Part shown: one piece after another, positions 43,456-63,895 of the stretch
Layout: the number at the start of each line of letters is the position of its first letter
Position numbering within the stretch: position 1 is the stretch's first letter
Virus record (IMG/VR): IMGVR_UViG_3300049927_000072
Coordinates: 1-64,000 of that record
Direction: 5' to 3' (one strand)
Length of the DNA: 64,000 nucleotides
DNA from: a virus
Notes under the pieces: generated by a model
Database searches by the model: none
What the model was told of the DNA's origin: nothing
What the model saw: the letters and a program-made list of their open reading frames with translations, nothing else
Program-made: the position numbers and the translations under genes

Positions 43456-44316
43456 ATGGCTAAGCTGAAAACCATCTATGAGACCGCAGAGGAAATTCCC
43501 GAAGGCTTCGCGGACTTGTTCACCGAGCGAAACGGGAAGTTCGAACTAACCGGCATCGAAAACGTCAAAACACAAGGTGACGTTGACCGAGTGGCCGAAG
43601 CTCTCCGTAAAGAAAAGGCCGATCACAAGGCCACCAAAGAGAGCCTTGTAAAATTTCACGGCATCGATCCTGAGACCGTCAATGCTCAACTCGAAGAGCT
43701 TGAGAGCACCAAGACCCAACTCGAAACCCTCACGAAAGGTGGCGCACTCGACGAGGCCAAGCTTGAGCCGATTATCGAGGCTCGCGTCAAGCGCGCTCTC
43801 GGCCCAGTCGAGCGCGAGAAAACTCAGTTGACGCGTGCGCTCGAAGTGTCGAAAAACGAAACCGTAGCTGCACGAACGGAAGTGGATAAGCTCTCTGGCG
43901 TGCTACAGTCTGGCACGATTGAGCGCGCGATCCGCGATGCAGCCATCGCCGCGAAGGTTATCAGCCCTGCCATTGAAGACGCTGTTATGCAGGGCCTTAG
44001 TGTCCTAACTGCCGCCGAAGACGGCGCGATTGTCACCAAGGACAACGTTGCGGGTGTGACCCCGGGCATCAGCGCTGCCGATTGGCTCAAGGACATGCAG
44101 GACAAGCGTCCGCATTGGTGGCCCGTCTCGCAAGGCGGCGGTTCACGCGGCGGCTCGGGCGGCGCGGTTAATCGCGCGGACAACCCGTGGACAAAGGAAG
44201 GCTGGAACATGACCAAGCAAGGTCAGACGGTGAAAACTCTCGGCGAGGCGAAAGCGAAAGCGATGGCTGAGAGCGTCGGCAGCTATATCGGCGCTACCAG
44301 CGCGGCGAAAGTCTGA
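43456..44316 (+). CDS. capsid scaffolding protein
   Basis: Coiled coil, PHWW..SQGGG, C-terminal NPW...WN.T.Q. Confidence 0.85.
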   Translation: MAKLKTIYETAEEIPEGFADLFTERNGKFELTGIENVKTQGDVDRVAEALRKEKADHKATKESLVKFHGIDPETVNAQLEELESTKTQLETLTKGGALDEAKLEPIIEARVKRALGPVEREKTQLTRALEVSKNETVAARTEVDKLSGVLQSGTIERAIRDAAIAAKVISPAIEDAVMQGLSVLTAAEDGAIVTKDNVAGVTPGISAADWLKDMQDKRPHWWPVSQGGGSRGGSGGAVNRADNPWTKEGWNMTKQGQTVKTLGEAKAKAMAESVGSYIGATSAAKV

Positions 44317-44342: not shown

Positions 44343-44373
44343 AGGCCCCGGATAATACCGGGGCCTTCTTTTT
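44343..44373 (+). terminator. terminator overlapping a promoter (-10 in loop)
   Basis: AGGCCCCGG-ATAATA-CCGGGGCCT plus T-run; TTGCAA 17 nt upstream of TAATAC. Confidence 0.75.
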
Positions 44374-44386
44374 ACTGGGGGACGTA

Positions 44387-44983
44387 ATGGCCGACATCCT
44401 AAGCAACCCGTGGGCCGCAGACACGTGGCACCTAGGCCAGCAAGCACAGTATGAGCAGCGCTACGGCACTCCGGCGGCAGAGCGCATGGCGCGCATCGCC
44501 GGTACGAAAATCGGCGGACTGCCGAAAAAGCCTGCGGGACAGAACAAAATCTACATCATTCAAGGCAAGCGTGGACCGGCCGGGCGTGACGGTTCATCTG
44601 GCGCTGGCGCGGGCACGCACGAGTTTCTCGGCTTTTACGCCGCGGGCACATTCGGCGATGCGCAGGTATTCACGGCATCCGCAACACCGCGCGCGACTTC
44701 ATTTCCGACGATCAGCCCGCCAGATGAGAGCCGCGCAACGTGTCGCGTCGCACCGACAAGTGATGTGAGTTTTTATCTCGTCAGTGATGTTGCAGAATTT
44801 ATGGGCGACGGATCGACGCTAATTTGCACAATCACGTTCGCTGCCAACTCGCTCGCCGGATCGTTTGTCTACGGCTCGCCAATAAGCGTTCCTATCGATA
44901 CTGCACTTTTTATCGTGTGCCCACTCACTGCCGATCCCGCGATCACAGATGTGCAGATCGTGTTTTGTGGTGATCCGACGTGA
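44387..44983 (+). CDS. virion protein: scaffold-like N-terminal motif, short collagen-like linker, beta-sandwich paralogous to 60701 C-terminus
   Basis: Manual alignments. Confidence 0.7.
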   Translation: MADILSNPWAADTWHLGQQAQYEQRYGTPAAERMARIAGTKIGGLPKKPAGQNKIYIIQGKRGPAGRDGSSGAGAGTHEFLGFYAAGTFGDAQVFTASATPRATSFPTISPPDESRATCRVAPTSDVSFYLVSDVAEFMGDGSTLICTITFAANSLAGSFVYGSPISVPIDTALFIVCPLTADPAITDVQIVFCGDPT

Positions 44984-46392
44984 CAGCTTCATTCGTATCG
45001 GCCGGTGCTTTTACCAATTCCGCCGGAGCAACATCAAGCTCGCCTGCGCTGCCAGCCGGTTACACCGGGAGCGCGCTGCTTATTGCATATGTCGTCACTG
45101 CAAATGCGAAGACGATTGCTGTATCCGCCGGATGGACAAAAGGTCAAGCCGAGCCGTCCGGCGCAACTTTGCAAAAGTCATGTTGGGCGTGGCGCGTCGC
45201 CGACGGATCGGAAACGGCCTGCGTGTTCTCGTGGACGAGCAACACCGCGTGCGTATCCGGCTGTAATGCCTATACAGGCGCGCCCGCAACTTCGCCGATA
45301 GCAGGATCAGCGACCCCGGCTGACGGTACATCAAATCCGAACGTCGGTACTTATACGACAACTGTGGCAAACGCGCTGCTAGTAGAGATTGCACTTAGCC
45401 AAGCGGCGAACGTCACCATCACGGAAGCAAATACCGGCTGGTCAGCGGCAGACAGTTCTTTCAAAGCAGCATCGCGGCAATCGGTCTACACCTTCCACGA
45501 CATCGTTTCAACCTCTGGTACGGTTGTCAGTTTCGGCACAGGCGACGGGACAGGTTCGCAGAAAATCGATTTCGTTGTCGAACTGAAGGCCGACCTTGTT
45601 ACTGAGACTTCAACCATCGACATGACGTTCGCGGCTATGACGCAAGCGGCTACCGTGGCCGAAGCCGAACCATCGACAATCGGCATGACCCTTGCAAACA
45701 CTCTCTTGCAAGAGATCGACGCGTCGAATGATGGCCTTAATGTAACAATCGCCACGACGTTAGCGAATATCTCGCAAGAGATAGACGCGACTGAAGTCGT
45801 GACTGGCACAGTTGACCAAACTTTTCCGGTTATGCAAGAAGAGATCGATGTGGCCGACAGCCCCGATGCCAGCATTGGGATGACGCTCTCTGGCGCGCTG
45901 CAAGAACTGCTCATAACGACGGAGATCGTGATCGAGAGCATAGACCAGACGCTTCCGGGGGCGCTGCAAGAGTTACTAGCCGCGACGGAAGTTGAAATAA
46001 CGTCGGTAAATACAGTGCTTTTCTCGCTCTCGGATCAAGAGCTAGACGGGAGCGTCAGCGGCCCCGCTCGCATTACGCAGATACTGCCGGGCGTACTACA
46101 AGAGGTTTTCGCGGCTACCGAGATCGAGATCACGGCGTTGGATCAAGTGCTGCCGGGTTTGATTGTCCTCGACTTCGAGGCGGATCAATCGCCTCCGGTA
46201 GTTATAAGATCGAATATCCCGTTCGCCTTGTCGATGGATGTCGAAGCAATAATTGCTGACGACGCGCAGATCGACATGACCTTCGTGAGCATCTCTGCTC
46301 CGCCGGTGGGCATGCACGTTGACATGACGCTCGGCGGCTCGATCTCTTGCGCGAGCGGCGTGTCACGTTCCGGATGGTGGGCCGGAGAGTAA
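44980..46392 (+). CDS. putative fibre scaffold/adhesin: N-terminal beta domain plus about 11 repeats of ~21-22 aa
   Basis: Repeats I..TL....QE. Confidence 0.7.
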   Translation: MTASFVSAGAFTNSAGATSSSPALPAGYTGSALLIAYVVTANAKTIAVSAGWTKGQAEPSGATLQKSCWAWRVADGSETACVFSWTSNTACVSGCNAYTGAPATSPIAGSATPADGTSNPNVGTYTTTVANALLVEIALSQAANVTITEANTGWSAADSSFKAASRQSVYTFHDIVSTSGTVVSFGTGDGTGSQKIDFVVELKADLVTETSTIDMTFAAMTQAATVAEAEPSTIGMTLANTLLQEIDASNDGLNVTIATTLANISQEIDATEVVTGTVDQTFPVMQEEIDVADSPDASIGMTLSGALQELLITTEIVIESIDQTLPGALQELLAATEVEITSVNTVLFSLSDQELDGSVSGPARITQILPGVLQEVFAATEIEITALDQVLPGLIVLDFEADQSPPVVIRSNIPFALSMDVEAIIADDAQIDMTFVSISAPPVGMHVDMTLGGSISCASGVSRSGWWAGE

Positions 46393-46452
46393 ACACCCGT
46401 TGCGAATTTCTGAAACCGACGATAAAACGCCAAGCTCAATTAGGGGGACATC

Positions 46453-46887
46453 ATGACAGCCGCACCACAATACAGCGAAGCCGCAGCACAGGCGGCCCTT
46501 GACGCACTTCTCGCCAAACTCAATGTCGGCGGTGCGGGCGTGATCAAAATTTTCGACGGCACCATCCCGGCCAACTGCGAAGCCGCAGATGCTGGTACCC
46601 GGCTCGCCACGTTGACGCTCAGTGCAACGGCATTCCCATCTTCAGCGACAAATGCCTCGCCGCGCGGTGCGAAAGCAACTGCAAGCGCAATTACGTCGGA
46701 TACCAACGCCGCAGCCACGGGCACCGCTCAGTATTTTCGGGCCTATGATCACACTGGCACCACGTGCGTCATTCAAGGCAATTGCGGCACTTCTAGCGCC
46801 GACATGATCCTGAATACCACATCCATCGCGTCCGGCTCGACCGTCTCGTGCTCGTCGTGGACGGTAACGCTCCCGGACGGCGGCTAA
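46453..46887 (+). CDS. putative fibre subunit (paralog of 62650)
   Basis: GGAG..KI, D..AA..GTA, TS.AD..L; own promoter at 46396. Confidence 0.75.
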   Translation: MTAAPQYSEAAAQAALDALLAKLNVGGAGVIKIFDGTIPANCEAADAGTRLATLTLSATAFPSSATNASPRGAKATASAITSDTNAAATGTAQYFRAYDHTGTTCVIQGNCGTSSADMILNTTSIASGSTVSCSSWTVTLPDGG

Positions 46888-46959
46888 TAAGAACACCCGT
46901 TGCGAGTTGCAAAGGCGCGGGCACAATGTCCGCGCCTTTTTGTTAGGGGGTTGAGAAAA

Positions 46960-47247
46960 ATGTACAAAGTTATTTTGGTCCTCGTGCATATAACTCTTGG
47001 GCCTGCGACTGTCGGGTCTCCGTCCGATCAAACGTTTGCGACGAAAGCAGAATGTATCGCGGGCATCTCGGGCGAAGTCGAGCGCGCTCAGATAATAATC
47101 GACACCGATATGCGTTTGGAAAAAGAAACAATGAAAGTTGTAGGCGGCCGATGTTTTTCGCTCGACGAGATCAATCAAATGTCAGGCGGCAAGAGTGCTG
47201 AAAATTTTCTTTTCAAATTGCCGGTTGCTCAGAATAATTTCGCGTGA
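46960..47247 (+). CDS. small secreted/membrane protein, moron-like
   Basis: Hydrophobic N-terminus, F.TK.EC; own promoter. Confidence 0.6.
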   Translation: MYKVILVLVHITLGPATVGSPSDQTFATKAECIAGISGEVERAQIIIDTDMRLEKETMKVVGGRCFSLDEINQMSGGKSAENFLFKLPVAQNNFA

Positions 47248-47389: not shown

Positions 47390-48487
47390 ATGACTACCGT
47401 CTCCACCACCATTTCTGACGTTATCGTCCCGTCAGTCTTTACGCCCTACACTCAGCAACTTACGATGGAAAAGACTGCTCTTATCCAGAGCGGCATCGCT
47501 TCGCGCGATGATTTCCTCGACAAGCTGCTCGCGGGCGGGGGCCTGACCTTCACCGTTCCGTCATGGCAGGACATCGGCGATCCCGCCGAAAACGTGTCCA
47601 GCGATGACCCGGACACTCTCTCTACCCCGAACAAGACGCAGGCTTCGGCCGAAGTCGCGGTGCGCCTCTCGCGTAACGCCTCTTGGAGCACGATGCGTCT
47701 CGCCACGGCCCTTGCCGGTGCCGACCCGATGCAGTCAATTGCATCGCGCGTCTCCGACTACTGGGTCCGTCGCCTTCAGCGCGCCTTCGTGGCGGTTGCT
47801 AACGGCGTGTTCGCGGACAACGCTCAAGCCGATCCGACCAATGGTCGCTCTGGCAACGTCGGCCTGACTGCCGCTTATGGCACGCAGAATGACTTGACGC
47901 ACTCGATCATCGGTGGCTCGTTCTCCGATGGCGTGACAAACTTCTCGGCTGCGGCGTTCATTGACACCGCAACCCTGCTCGGCGACGCGGCCGAAGACGT
48001 GACGGCAGTTGTAATGCACTCGGTTGTTTACAGCCGTGCGCAAAAGAACAACCTGATCGACTTCATCCCGGACAGCGAAGGGAAAATCAACATCCCGACG
48101 TTCCTTGGACGGCGCGTGATCGTTGACGACGGCATGCCTAACCCGGCTGGCGACAGCGGAAACGGTGCGCAGACTGCTTCGGGCATCTATCACACTTGGC
48201 TTGTTGGCCCGGGCGCGTTCCGCCTCGGCGTCGGCACCCCGGTTGTGCCTACCGAAGTGTTCCGCTACCCGGATCGCGGCAACGGCGCTGGATCGGACAT
48301 CCTCTATAACCGTGTCGAGTGGTCTATCCACCCGGTCGGCCACGCCTACATCGGAACGCCTTCAACCGAAGGTGGCCCGACGAACGCTTCGACGAGCAAC
48401 AACCTCGCCGCTGCGGCTTCGTGGGTCCGTGTGTTCCCCGAGCGCAAGCAAATCAAGCTTGCTCGGCTAATCACTCGCGAGAGCTAG
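47390..48487 (+). CDS. major capsid protein (HK97 fold, YuA-like)
   Basis: T.ISDVIVP.VFTPY, L.G.DPM..IA.RV..YW, MHS.VY, TFLGRRVIVDD. Confidence 0.92.
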   Translation: MTTVSTTISDVIVPSVFTPYTQQLTMEKTALIQSGIASRDDFLDKLLAGGGLTFTVPSWQDIGDPAENVSSDDPDTLSTPNKTQASAEVAVRLSRNASWSTMRLATALAGADPMQSIASRVSDYWVRRLQRAFVAVANGVFADNAQADPTNGRSGNVGLTAAYGTQNDLTHSIIGGSFSDGVTNFSAAAFIDTATLLGDAAEDVTAVVMHSVVYSRAQKNNLIDFIPDSEGKINIPTFLGRRVIVDDGMPNPAGDSGNGAQTASGIYHTWLVGPGAFRLGVGTPVVPTEVFRYPDRGNGAGSDILYNRVEWSIHPVGHAYIGTPSTEGGPTNASTSNNLAAAASWVRVFPERKQIKLARLITRES

Positions 48488-60651: not shown

Positions 60652-60700
60652 TAATTCACCCGTTGCGACTTCAAACTCTCTGACGTAAGGATCACGCACC

Positions 60701-61540
60701 ATGACAATCACATATCGCACAAACGACAACACCCGGTGGGGCAGCGGTCAGGGCACTGACCTTTCTGCGGCTCAGGTCGACATCAATTTCTGGGAACTGT
60801 TTAGCGCGATCAGTGCGCTACAGGACCATTCGAACAATGGTGCGTTTATCGACTTCTTCGCCGTGAGCGGTAACAATCTTTTCGTGCACATGACCGATCA
60901 CTCGGTGCTCGGTCCCTACTCGCTTCCCGTTGCACAGTGGAATTTCCGGGGCCAATGGCAGCCGAGCACGGCTTACGCGATCATGGACACTTTCAATGGT
61001 CCGGATGGTGGTGTCTATCTTACTATTTTTGCACACACGAGCGACCTCACATTCTCCGCCGGAGCGAACGATGGCCTAGGGCACGACTTCTACGCCGCGC
61101 TGCTCAATCCGCCGATCAGTCTCATGCCCGCAGGCGGCACGATTGCGCAACGGCTCGCGAAGGTCGACAGCACGGATTACAACGCCGCGTGGGTCAACGA
61201 TCCTATAAAGATCGCGGTGTACGTCGAAGGACAGCCGACATCGGGCGAAAAGCTCATGGTGTACACGTCGGTCGATACTTTCATCCTGCCAGCGGGTCTG
61301 ACAACCTCGCGCGCGTCATGTCAGGCGTCCGGTGCAGGTGCGATCTCGTACAACCTCTTCAAGAATGGCTCTTCAATCGGTACCGTCAACTTCGCGGCTG
61401 CGGCCGTAGTGGCAACGTTCGCATTTTCGGCCGATGTGCAATTCGTGCCGGGTGATGTGCTCACGCTGACCGGCCCTGCTTCGCCAAGCGCGACGCAGAG
61501 CGGCATCGCGGTCACGATTGTCGGCCTAATCAACGGCTAA
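60701..61540 (+). CDS. tail fibre anchor/adaptor protein
   Basis: G.G..L.A..VD.NF N-terminus, RG.W...T.Y module, C-terminal beta-sandwich. Confidence 0.75.
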   Translation: MTITYRTNDNTRWGSGQGTDLSAAQVDINFWELFSAISALQDHSNNGAFIDFFAVSGNNLFVHMTDHSVLGPYSLPVAQWNFRGQWQPSTAYAIMDTFNGPDGGVYLTIFAHTSDLTFSAGANDGLGHDFYAALLNPPISLMPAGGTIAQRLAKVDSTDYNAAWVNDPIKIAVYVEGQPTSGEKLMVYTSVDTFILPAGLTTSRASCQASGAGAISYNLFKNGSSIGTVNFAAAAVVATFAFSADVQFVPGDVLTLTGPASPSATQSGIAVTIVGLING

Positions 61541-61547
61541 ATGAGCC

Positions 61548-62621
61548 ATGAGCAATACCACATTTAATCCGAGCGATAAAAGTGCCAACATCGTACTGAG
61601 TAACGGTAACCACACGTATACTCAGTCTTCGTCGGGCGAGCAGGGCGTCCGGACCGTGCTCGGCGTGAACACCGGCAAGTTTTACACCGAGACGAACTGG
61701 GATAATACGCCGTCGGGCACCGATACTGGCGCTGGATTTTGTACAGCGGGTGCGACCCTCACGAGCTTAGGGTCTACAGTTACCAATGCGTGCATCGCCT
61801 TTAAGAGCGGCTCGATATGGGTCAACGGGAGCAGCCCCGGCAACGTCGGCGGAGCTTTCGCAATCAATGATAAAATATGCTGCGCGATAGACCTAGTTAA
61901 CTCGAAAGTCTGGTTCAGAAAGAACGGTGGCAATTGGAATAACAGCGGCACCGCAGACCCGGCGACTAATACCGGCGGCTTCTCAATCTCTGGCTTCCAG
62001 ACGAACAATTCGACCGTGATGCACGGCTGTGGTTGCGTCAACGTAAGCGCCGACACGCTCACGTCAAACTTTGGTGACACGTCATTCTCATTCACAGTGC
62101 CGTCGGGCTTTCAACCGGGCCTGCCGGGCACAGTTACTGAGACCTCTACAATCGACATGATCTTCTCGACCATGGCGCAAGCGGTCACCGTCACCGTGCA
62201 CTTTGGTACGCTGGCTGTCACGGAAGGGACCGATACGTTCGCAGGAACCGGCGACGCATTCCCGGGCTTGGTCGCAGGCTTCGACGGCCTCGAAACGAGC
62301 GATATATTCGACGGCGCAGGCTATGCAGACATTGTCGGACCGATGGTCACGACAGAAGCGGGCGATGTCTTCCACGGAATTTTGGTATCTCCGAAGAATG
62401 TCACGTTCGCTATCACAGAAACGAAAGATATTTTTAGTGGAATTGGTTTTGTCGTCGGTATAAGTGGACTGTTCGCTACGACAGAACCTGTTGACAGAAT
62501 GACTGCGACAGGATTTATCAAGCCGAAAGGTCCGCTTGTGGCGACCGAATTGGCCGATAGGTTCTCGGCTCGTGCGCCGGGTGTGGTCACGATCATACGA
62601 CGCCTGATCTCAGTGAACTGA
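61548..62621 (+). CDS. SPRY/B30.2-like receptor-binding domain plus E..D.F repeats (fibre scaffold)
   Basis: T.NPSDK...I.LSNGN, GKFY.E, CAIDL...KVWFRKNG, NFG...F....P.GF. Confidence 0.8.
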   Translation: MSNTTFNPSDKSANIVLSNGNHTYTQSSSGEQGVRTVLGVNTGKFYTETNWDNTPSGTDTGAGFCTAGATLTSLGSTVTNACIAFKSGSIWVNGSSPGNVGGAFAINDKICCAIDLVNSKVWFRKNGGNWNNSGTADPATNTGGFSISGFQTNNSTVMHGCGCVNVSADTLTSNFGDTSFSFTVPSGFQPGLPGTVTETSTIDMIFSTMAQAVTVTVHFGTLAVTEGTDTFAGTGDAFPGLVAGFDGLETSDIFDGAGYADIVGPMVTTEAGDVFHGILVSPKNVTFAITETKDIFSGIGFVVGISGLFATTEPVDRMTATGFIKPKGPLVATELADRFSARAPGVVTIIRRLISVN

Positions 62622-62649: not shown

Positions 62650-63024
62650 ATGTCTATCGTATACAATACGACGTTGAAAAATACGCGCCTCACCGATGTG
62701 GTGACCGCGATTGATACTGGCGGCGCTGGTGCTCTTAAGATCGGCACGACTGCCATGGGCACCGTGCTATCGACCATCACGCTGGCAAACCCTGTCGGCT
62801 CTGTCTCCGGTGGCGTGCTCACATTCTCTGGCACTCCGTTGAGCGATAGCTCTGCGGCGAACTCCGGTACGGCGGCTGCGGCTGCCATTTACTCCGGCGG
62901 ATCGACACTGATTATCTCGTCGCTCACCGTGAACACAAGCGGCGCGGATATCAATCTGTCGTCCGTTGCTGTAGTCGCTGGCGAACCGGTCACGTTGACC
63001 TCTGCATCCATCACACACGGCTAG
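62650..63024 (+). CDS. putative fibre subunit (paralog of 46453)
   Basis: GGAG.LKI, SD..AA..GTA, TSGADI.L. Confidence 0.75.
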   Translation: MSIVYNTTLKNTRLTDVVTAIDTGGAGALKIGTTAMGTVLSTITLANPVGSVSGGVLTFSGTPLSDSSAANSGTAAAAAIYSGGSTLIISSLTVNTSGADINLSSVAVVAGEPVTLTSASITHG

Positions 63025-63028
63025 TGCC

Positions 63029-63895
63029 GTGATGTTGAAAGTCCCCGCCGTCACGCTCGTCATAGCCGAGACGCGAGCTTATGAGCTTGCCGCGCGCGCG
63101 ATCAACGATCTCGTGAGCCGCGTGCAATTCGGCGACATCCTGATTTATTCTGACGATTGCTGGCGCATCGACGTGCCGGGTGCACGTTACATTCATGTCA
63201 AGGATTGGGGTGACAAGATTGCTTCCGGCCGCTTTTACTATACTGAGGCGGCGACGAAGATCAAAACCTCACACGCGCTGCTCATGGAATGGGATGCTGG
63301 CCTCAACGATCCGAGCGCGTGGGATGACGAGTTTCTCAGCTATGATTGCGTCGGAGCACCGTGGCGCGGCGAACATCCAAATCTGACAGGCGGGCGCAAC
63401 GTTGGCAATGGCGGTTTCATGCTTCTGTCGAAACGCCTAATCGATTTCCTCTACCAAAAACGCGATAAATACCTGATCGCGACCGACGTGCATCTCTGTT
63501 GCGAGCATCGCCGCCAAATCGAGGCCGAAGGGGCCTTCCTATGGGCGAGAGCCGATGTTGCCGAGAGATTTTCTTATGAAGGCTGGCATTGGGTGGAGAA
63601 CAAAATCACGCTTAAAGAACGTCCGCGCAGTTTTGGCTTTCATGGTGTCTTTAACTGGCCTTACATGCTCTCAAGAGCAGAATTGCTCACGCGCCGTGAC
63701 ATGCTCGTTGCTAACGAGTTTACGCGGCGGACCAAGCTTGATTTGCTCTTGAAATACGCGCCGGAGCTTCGCGCCACTTTACCGGCGATGCAACGTCCAC
63801 TCAATCCAATTGACAAGGCGCGGCAAGCTCGTGCTCGCCAGCGCACGGATGCAATGCGCGTATACCGCGGCGGCAACAGAGGATTGAAAGCATGA
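63029..63895 (+). CDS. DUF5672-like glycosyltransferase-fold protein
   Basis: H.L...WD, W.DEFL.YD..GAPW, VGNGGF.L.S, FS.E, FGFHG. Confidence 0.8.
   Translation: MMLKVPAVTLVIAETRAYELAARAINDLVSRVQFGDILIYSDDCWRIDVPGARYIHVKDWGDKIASGRFYYTEAATKIKTSHALLMEWDAGLNDPSAWDDEFLSYDCVGAPWRGEHPNLTGGRNVGNGGFMLLSKRLIDFLYQKRDKYLIATDVHLCCEHRRQIEAEGAFLWARADVAERFSYEGWHWVENKITLKERPRSFGFHGVFNWPYMLSRAELLTRRDMLVANEFTRRTKLDLLLKYAPELRATLPAMQRPLNPIDKARQARARQRTDAMRVYRGGNRGLKA

Follow-up and report, generated by a model that had tools for sequence, protein, structure and literature searches.

What would a phage build with two three-gene cassettes of the same order, one lodged among its head genes and the other placed at the end of its tail genes? 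The question is raised by a 64,000-nucleotide stretch of DNA, hereafter the window, which is the first 64 kilobases (kb) of a 75.9-kb metagenomic contig held as a virus record in IMG/VR (IMGVR_UViG_3300049927_000072). Each cassette encodes, in order, a protein A with a C-terminal domain common to both cassettes, a protein B in which a folded head precedes a run of short repeats, and a small protein C. We conclude, with a probability that we put at roughly 70%, that each cassette encodes a chain-like virion fiber of the beads-on-a-rope type.

All six cassette genes are open frames on the plus strand, where the first-pass annotation of the window had placed them, and family, profile, and repeat analyses agree with its description of two three-gene cassettes in the same order. 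Cassette 1 (A1, B1, and C1) lies between the gene for the head scaffolding protein (positions 43456 to 44316) and that for the major capsid protein (47390 to 48487), which are adjacent in the cultured relatives MMDA13 and RDJL3; the gene coordinates thus bear out that this cassette splits scaffold from capsid. Cassette 2 (A2, B2, and C2) closes the series of tail genes and is followed by a gene for a DUF5672 protein. That the cassettes are paralogous, as had also been claimed, holds for the C pair and for the C-terminal domains of the A proteins; the B pair share only their architecture and one junction motif. A Pfam search gave no match for A1, B1, C1, or C2.

C1 (144 amino acids; 46453 to 46887), which has its own Shine-Dalgarno sequence, is modeled by AlphaFold2 as an N-terminal helix and a beta sandwich, with a predicted local distance difference test score (pLDDT) of 88. 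Its paralog C2 (124 amino acids; 62650 to 63024) belongs to a short subfamily without two loops. A direct BLASTP comparison of the two gives 30% identity over 134 amino acids (expect value [E], 0.02), and their relationship, as first proposed, is confirmed by the phrog_3758 "virion structural protein" hidden Markov model (HMM), which both match (C1, E of 4.9e-31; C2, E of 3.4e-11), by a 49-sequence bead-family HMM (4.7e-49 and 1.6e-25), and by their common homologs (51 of the 80 viral homologs fetched are matched by both). The bead-family profile aligns with two solved proteins over their full length, namely, fiber I gp40 of Pseudomonas phage A1002 (44nx_B, a chain of 147 amino acids; E of 1.1e-17; PMC13730344) and gp014 of the flagellotropic Agrobacterium phage 7-7-1 (9rkv_A; E of 5.4e-14; the 141 amino acids of 9RKV chain A equal the length of gp014). 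The latter is also the closest solved structure to the C1 model (Z score [Z] of 14.7, root mean square deviation of 2.5, 135 residues), followed by the whiskers of Bas63 (Z of 10.5) and Sf14 (Z of 10.2), by GP4 8jou_a (Z of 6.6), and by the arm segments of phi812 and A511 (Z of 6.4). The profile match to A1002 gp40 and the Z scores for 7-7-1, Bas63, and Sf14 place C1 among the small bead subunits of the gp80/gp40/whisker fold. Having no match to Pfam Gp80, the bead family is a sequence family separate from Gp80 with the same fold and, judged by its homology to A1002 gp40, the same role. A link to the head filament of phiCbK was considered and dropped, the sole Caulobacter match for C1 being phage Seuss.

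The middle proteins are, as the first-pass annotation had it, a globular N-terminal domain followed by repeats of about 21 amino acids, with a period of 22 in B1 and 21 in B2. B1 opens with an all-beta head (residues 1 to ~205; 44980 to 45594) that AlphaFold2 folds confidently (pLDDT of ~80 to 96). This head belongs to a widespread, unnamed domain family, with 153 representatives in a library search and no Pfam match among 41 of its homologs. About 11 repeats (residues ~205 to 450) and a short aromatic tail make up the rest of the protein (45595 to 46392), and the repeat region is modeled without structure at a pLDDT of <50, as expected if the chain becomes ordered only when bound to its partner. 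B2 (61548 to 62621) comprises a SPRY-like head (residues 1 to ~190; phrog_10080, with a weak SPRY match), a junction motif (196 to 215), about 7 repeats (~211 to 350), and a basic-hydrophobic tail. Adjacent to each bead gene there is, in consequence of these repeats, a gene for a putative extended rope with several docking sites. The only sequence that B1 and B2 have in common is the 20-amino-acid junction motif (15 of 20 residues identical; BLASTP E of 4e-5), which was not found elsewhere among the fetched loci. In the DNA, 60 nucleotides at the head/rope junction (45598 to 45657 versus 62133 to 62192) are about 80% identical, and the remainder of the two genes is without DNA similarity; a gene-conversion patch, a module-swap linker, and a site for a common partner are all candidates. 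The viral contigs searched contained no close relatives of B1, and for its repeat part large protein searches returned no more than a few relatives.

Docking of the small subunits on the repeats, another element of the first-pass annotation, is supported as a prediction by the homology to solved beads, by the unfolded repeats, and by modeling of the complex. With two copies of C1 and residues 299 to 386 of B1 as input, the complex prediction scored 0.67 (runs of 0.67, 0.64, and 0.70), and the best of three controls scored 0.00; 58 of 80 solved complexes attain that mark, as do 2 of 110 mismatched pairs. The predicted contacts join a 25-residue stretch of B1 (residues 314 to 338) to the C-terminal strands of C1 (residues 117 to 144) in both copies. 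We read this prediction as an indication of likeness more than as independent proof, because like complexes have already been solved.

A1 (198 amino acids; 44387 to 44983), the gene for which overlaps that of B1 by 4 nucleotides, consists of an N-terminal module resembling the scaffold C terminus (residues ~5 to 50), a short Gly-X-Y stretch (60 to 76), and a jelly-roll tip domain (79 to 196). In A2 (60701 to 61540), an N-terminal part with CBM_5_12-bearing homologs precedes a C-terminal jelly-roll tip domain (169 to 276). The N-terminal halves are unrelated, and BLASTP finds no significant match between the two proteins (E of 0.21). However, profile-profile comparison by hhalign of a small A1-family alignment versus 36 A2 relatives aligns A1 79 to 196 with A2 169 to 276 over 108 columns (probability of 97.2%; E of 4.5e-11), which vindicates the claim that the two share a C-terminal domain. 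The A2-family HMM matches residues 471 to 581 of 7-7-1 gp015 (7e-7), a stretch that largely coincides with its jelly roll (473 to 587), and the small 7-7-1 protein gp013 (3e-8); A1 alone versus gp015 is not significant, and A1 is linked to it through A2. By these profile matches, the shared domain is of the type found in the distal jelly-roll tip of the 7-7-1 long tail fiber, and the label "adaptor" first given to protein A understates it. The A1 family has only four other members, all on short contigs. The five Gly-X-Y triplets of A1 are too few to claim a collagen trimer, and that idea was set aside; in relatives, however, the same N-module is followed by long Pfam Collagen repeats.

We propose that C would be the bead, probably acting as a dimer, and B the rope, in which a folded beta-rich head leads into an extended chain of docking repeats, each clamped by the C-terminal strands of the bead via beta-sheet augmentation. 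Protein A would contribute the jelly-roll tip domain and a cassette-specific N-terminal attachment part. Because the predicted footprint is about 25 residues and the rope of A1002 uses ~270 to 330 residues for 11 dimers, a spacing to which the ~22 amino acids per B1 site come close, we suggest one dimer per repeat, that is, up to ~11 dimers (~22 copies of C1) on B1 and ~7 dimers on B2. Cassette 2 could be read as a tail-tip fiber, and the first protein of cassette 1 would probably be recruited to the capsid or neck during head assembly. As for the target of the fibers, capture of a flagellum or pilus is speculative; flagellotropic phages account for two of the homologous systems, and A1002, GP4, and Bas63 have not been reported to be of that kind.

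The proposed fiber resembles several solved assemblies and differs from each. In A1002, 11 gp40/gp41 dimers are threaded on the fiber-dock rope that belongs to gp39, a nozzle-rope protein, each with an augmented beta sheet (PDB 44NX; PMC13730344). The likeness lies in the homologous bead and in an extended chain that bears a folded domain besides its docking sites, about 11 in number; beta-sheet augmentation between rope and bead is, for the present locus, a prediction. A1002 is a podophage in which the rope belongs to the nozzle protein, whereas the siphovirus studied here has a separate B protein with regular repeats of 21 to 22 amino acids, a pair of complete paralogous cassettes (the first within the head module), and an extra jelly-roll A protein in each. 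The collar whiskers of Bas63 and Sf14, like Fiber I of the podophage GP4, have the same bead fold and threaded dimers (PDB 9MT4, 9C39, and 8JOU), with five dimers on the rope in GP4 and two per collar in Bas63 (PMC12609058), and the whisker gene is found among head/neck genes. These assemblies have 2 to 5 dimers per rope and an Ig-like collar anchor; in contrast, the present locus encodes a scaffold-like N-module and a jelly-roll protein and has no Pfam Gp80 match. The arm of the Herelleviridae (phi812 scaffold gp117 and segments gp118; A511 gp105) similarly joins an N-terminal helix to a beta sandwich, and its scaffold linkers bridge the C-terminal strands, completing the beta sheets of the arm segments in phi812 (PMC13433997). 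However, the fold match is weak (Z of 6.4), the arm belongs to the baseplate of a contractile tail, and its linkers are not built of regular repeats.

The closest parallel in gene content is with 7-7-1, in which neighboring genes encode an A-type tip fiber, two C paralogs (gp014 and gp012; bead HMM, 2e-18 and 9e-23, respectively), and proteins with repeats of about 20 amino acids and basic tails (gp009 and gp010). Going by these gene inventories, 7-7-1 and the phage studied here appear to encode the same toolkit. The garland protein gp014 binds as dimers to distal parts of the fibers (PDB 9RKV; PMC12796354), and the long tail fiber ends in a distal "triple jelly roll" that the garland contacts (PMC12796354). 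In both 7-7-1 and Milano, which are myoviruses, the distal ends of baseplate fibers are wrapped by dimers of the small proteins, with no rope resolved, whereas here a rope gene lies between A and C. Within 7-7-1, we consider gp010 and gp009 candidates for the ropes of the garland or, alternatively, of the capsid fibers. The tails of these two proteins (L090:10297-12740) are basic-hydrophobic, as in B2 and in the ropes of contigs L008 and L012. The module also recurs elsewhere; the order A-like, B-like (with 21- to 22-amino-acid repeats), and C is found in three viral contigs (L008, L012, and L013), and C followed by B is found in two (L009 and L072). Across the wider family, at least 14 of 41 loci have a portal gene directly upstream of the bead, an arrangement that the Bas63 whisker shares.

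Where on the virion cassette 1 would be mounted is a separate matter. The C terminus of the scaffold (residues 243 to 279) carries a motif that recurs at the beginning of A1 (residues 7 to 43; BLASTP E of 8e-6), and the A1-family HMM matches the scaffold of this phage at 1e-7 and, in the same region, the scaffold C terminus of essentially every relative. The slot between scaffold and capsid genes is variable. Among close metagenomic relatives (major capsid proteins 74 to 89% identical), the gap measures 1.4 to 7.3 kb in 18 of 33 and <1 kb in 15 of 33; among distant relatives, only 1 of 20 has an insert. In about 14 distinct relatives the insert opens with the scaffold-like N-module (~45 to 70 residues; A1-family HMM E of 1e-8 to 1e-16), and six have a C1 homolog just before the capsid gene. 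Full A-B-C sets occupy the slot in five (L105, L106, L117, L121, and L125), with C1 homologs that are 60 to 67% identical. Other inserts hold long Pfam Collagen fibers, a group-1 glycosyltransferase, small open reading frames (ORFs), or, in L137, a bona fide Pfam Gp80 bead. Such a combination of constant anchor and exchangeable distal parts is typical of fiber loci. We discarded the notion that the A1 N-module is a mere recombination relic, as it has invariant residues across the A1 family and is kept across inserts with differing downstream parts.

The anchor is not always fused to what follows it. In the window, anchor and tip domain form one 198-amino-acid protein (A1); at L105:4494-5200, L108:4128-4364, and L137:5073-5339, the anchor is a separate ORF of 78 to 89 amino acids ending in SSGDGPP, and the ORF after it, which overlaps it, opens with the conserved motif DG(D/E)FYI(D/N)(D/N)L. 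Collagen-triple-helix proteins (Pfam Collagen E of 3e-59) stand behind the scaffold-like anchor at L108:4361-6634, L116:1505-3310, and L116:3370-4467, together with a group-1 glycosyltransferase, which hints at glycosylated collagen-like head or neck fibers.

Because the anchor copies the scaffold C terminus, it suggests that recruitment proceeds via the capsid protein while the head assembles, and gene position together with the scaffold-like N terminus makes a location of cassette 1 on the head plausible. The wider proposal that a clade of Chi-like siphoviruses mounts interchangeable fibers, whether beaded, collagen-like, or differently tipped, on the head by means of this N-module, with cassette 1 encoding a capsid-anchored beaded filament, is one that we offer tentatively and regard as doubtful. 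Of the other readings, the one that survives best is that both cassettes encode tail or baseplate fibers, that the scaffold-capsid slot is merely a tolerated insertion site, and that the products of cassette 1 join the tail tip or neck. Every solved homolog, in A1002, GP4, Bas63, 7-7-1, Milano, and phi812, sits on the tail, baseplate, or neck, which counts against a head location. Moreover, Bas63 encodes its whisker amid the head genes but carries it on the connector (PMC12609058), and the slot cargo of relatives is unrelated from one to another (collagen-like fibers, a glycosyltransferase, small ORFs). Nevertheless, a homolog of the scaffold C terminus is kept in the ~14 relatives whatever follows it, which speaks for a role in head assembly, and the tail is already served by its own paralogous cassette. 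We think it possible, if somewhat unlikely, that cassette 1 belongs to the tail or neck.

A second reading concerns the rope itself. The C dimers might surround the jelly-roll tips of A as a garland or clamp, as in 7-7-1 and Milano, with B a separate fiber of self-folding repeats, for example, a homotrimer. It draws on the fact that the closest solved structure to C1 is the 7-7-1 garland protein, on the tip domain of A being of the type that this garland contacts (PMC12796354), and on the inability of a monomer AlphaFold2 model to reveal an oligomeric fold of the repeats. On the other hand, the complex prediction places a B1 repeat on the C-terminal strands of the bead while controls score 0.00, regular 21- to 22-amino-acid repeats beside bead genes recur in unrelated contigs, and the authors who described gp125 and gp127, Milano's garland proteins, themselves suspected an unseen "string" (PMC10811340). 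We therefore consider a garland without a rope improbable and retain the beads-on-a-rope fiber.

Several points nonetheless weigh against this fiber or parts of it. A rope may not be obligatory for this bead family, because none was identified in the garlands of 7-7-1 and Milano. None of the 49 bead-family members matches Pfam PF23140 (Gp80, the GP4 fiber I protein) at E values up to 1, and hhalign of the family to the Gp80-type protein of L137 gives a probability of only 9.5%. The B1 and B2 heads are unrelated, the B1 head HMM having no match in B2, and a structure search with the B1 head (Foldseek, VIA-wide) found no clear relative, the best hits (Z of 5.4) being generic beta sandwiches; an adhesin role for this head is neither supported nor excluded by the fold search. 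The complex prediction is weak in its details, with agreement between runs of at least 6% of contacts and a partner pLDDT of at least 43, and its pass may be partly a recall of solved complexes. Assembly, stoichiometry, and location are points that we infer from the sequence of a metagenomic contig. Finally, a scaffold-like anchor fits an external fiber poorly, because scaffold C termini (P22 type) generally bind the inner surface of the capsid. That habit and the conservation of the motif would favor A1, alone or with partners, as an internal procapsid passenger carrying a cargo-targeting-like peptide, a reading that we regard as very improbable, as the remaining cassette parts (tip jelly roll and beads, and the long collagen repeats of relatives) are known only from the virion exterior.

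Chain-like fibers have, to our knowledge, been solved by cryo-EM only between 2023 and 2026, in a few podophages and myophage necks, and this locus extends them to a siphovirus. The beads-on-a-rope architecture has been published before, and the novelty lies in the context: a siphovirus carries a pair of paralogous cassettes, one of which occupies a hypervariable slot separating the scaffold gene from the capsid gene. The scaffold-like anchor is the most original element, but it is one that we infer; if a scaffold-derived module does dock a fiber on the head, it would explain how accessory head fibers are recruited. The clean tandem-repeat rope adds that repeat number may set fiber length. A head-anchored fiber, if true, would give a handle on the head filaments of flagellotropic phages. 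The genes of the 7-7-1 head filaments are unknown according to the authors of that structure (PMC12796354), and, if the head-anchored reading is true, 7-7-1 gp009 to gp015 would be the first concrete candidate for its capsid fibers.

The cassettes are accompanied by a short recurrent motif, CCCGTTGCGA, of which the window has three copies, all placed just behind a stop codon; chance alone would yield 0.39, and among 100 shuffles a single one attains three. In its extended form, (A/T)CACCCGTTGCGA, each copy lies 2 to 6 nucleotides after the stop and beside a fiber cassette (the expectation of 0.39 is for the 10-nucleotide core). The first copy (ACACCCGTTGCGA; 46393 to 46405) directly follows the B1 stop, 5' of C1. 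The second (46893 to 46905) follows C1 and is succeeded by a G+C-rich hairpin with a T run (motif and hairpin, 46893 to 46940), which was read by eye and is absent from the scan list. The third (TCACCCGTTGCGA; 60656 to 60668) directly follows the stop of a 563-amino-acid tail gene, 5' of A2. All three are on the plus strand, and the motif may be the -35 element of a late promoter or a processing site. A sigma-70 scan found no standard promoter for C1 and so left unconfirmed the suggestion that the small gene of cassette 1 has its own promoter. In the gap between scaffold and A1, a strong terminator-like hairpin of 9 pairs, 8 of them G-C, with a T run, lies at 44343 to 44366 on the plus strand.

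The surrounding genes are those of a phage Chi-like tailed siphovirus, with the late genes on the plus strand. The head genes encode a portal, the scaffold (phrog_206; E of 4.6e-36), and the major capsid protein (phrog_247; E of 3.4e-103), the gene for which is the downstream border of the variable slot; those for neck and tail encode a head-tail adaptor, a head closure protein, a tail tube, a tape measure, and three large distal proteins. Counterparts of the major capsid protein in NP1-like, Xanthomonas, Sphingomonas, and Roseobacter siphoviruses are about 59% identical to it, and Salmonella Chi-like phages match it more distantly. Between C1 and the capsid gene, a small plus-strand ORF of 95 amino acids (46960 to 47247), with a hydrophobic, signal-like N terminus and a good Shine-Dalgarno sequence, is no part of the fiber; small ORFs with similar N termini occupy the same spot in relatives L147 and L148. 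Directly 3' of cassette 2, the DUF5672 protein (63029 to 63895, plus strand; PF18922 E of 1.7e-10) follows the tail cassette, and in relatives a glycosyltransferase follows the head cassette; modification of the fibers is possible.

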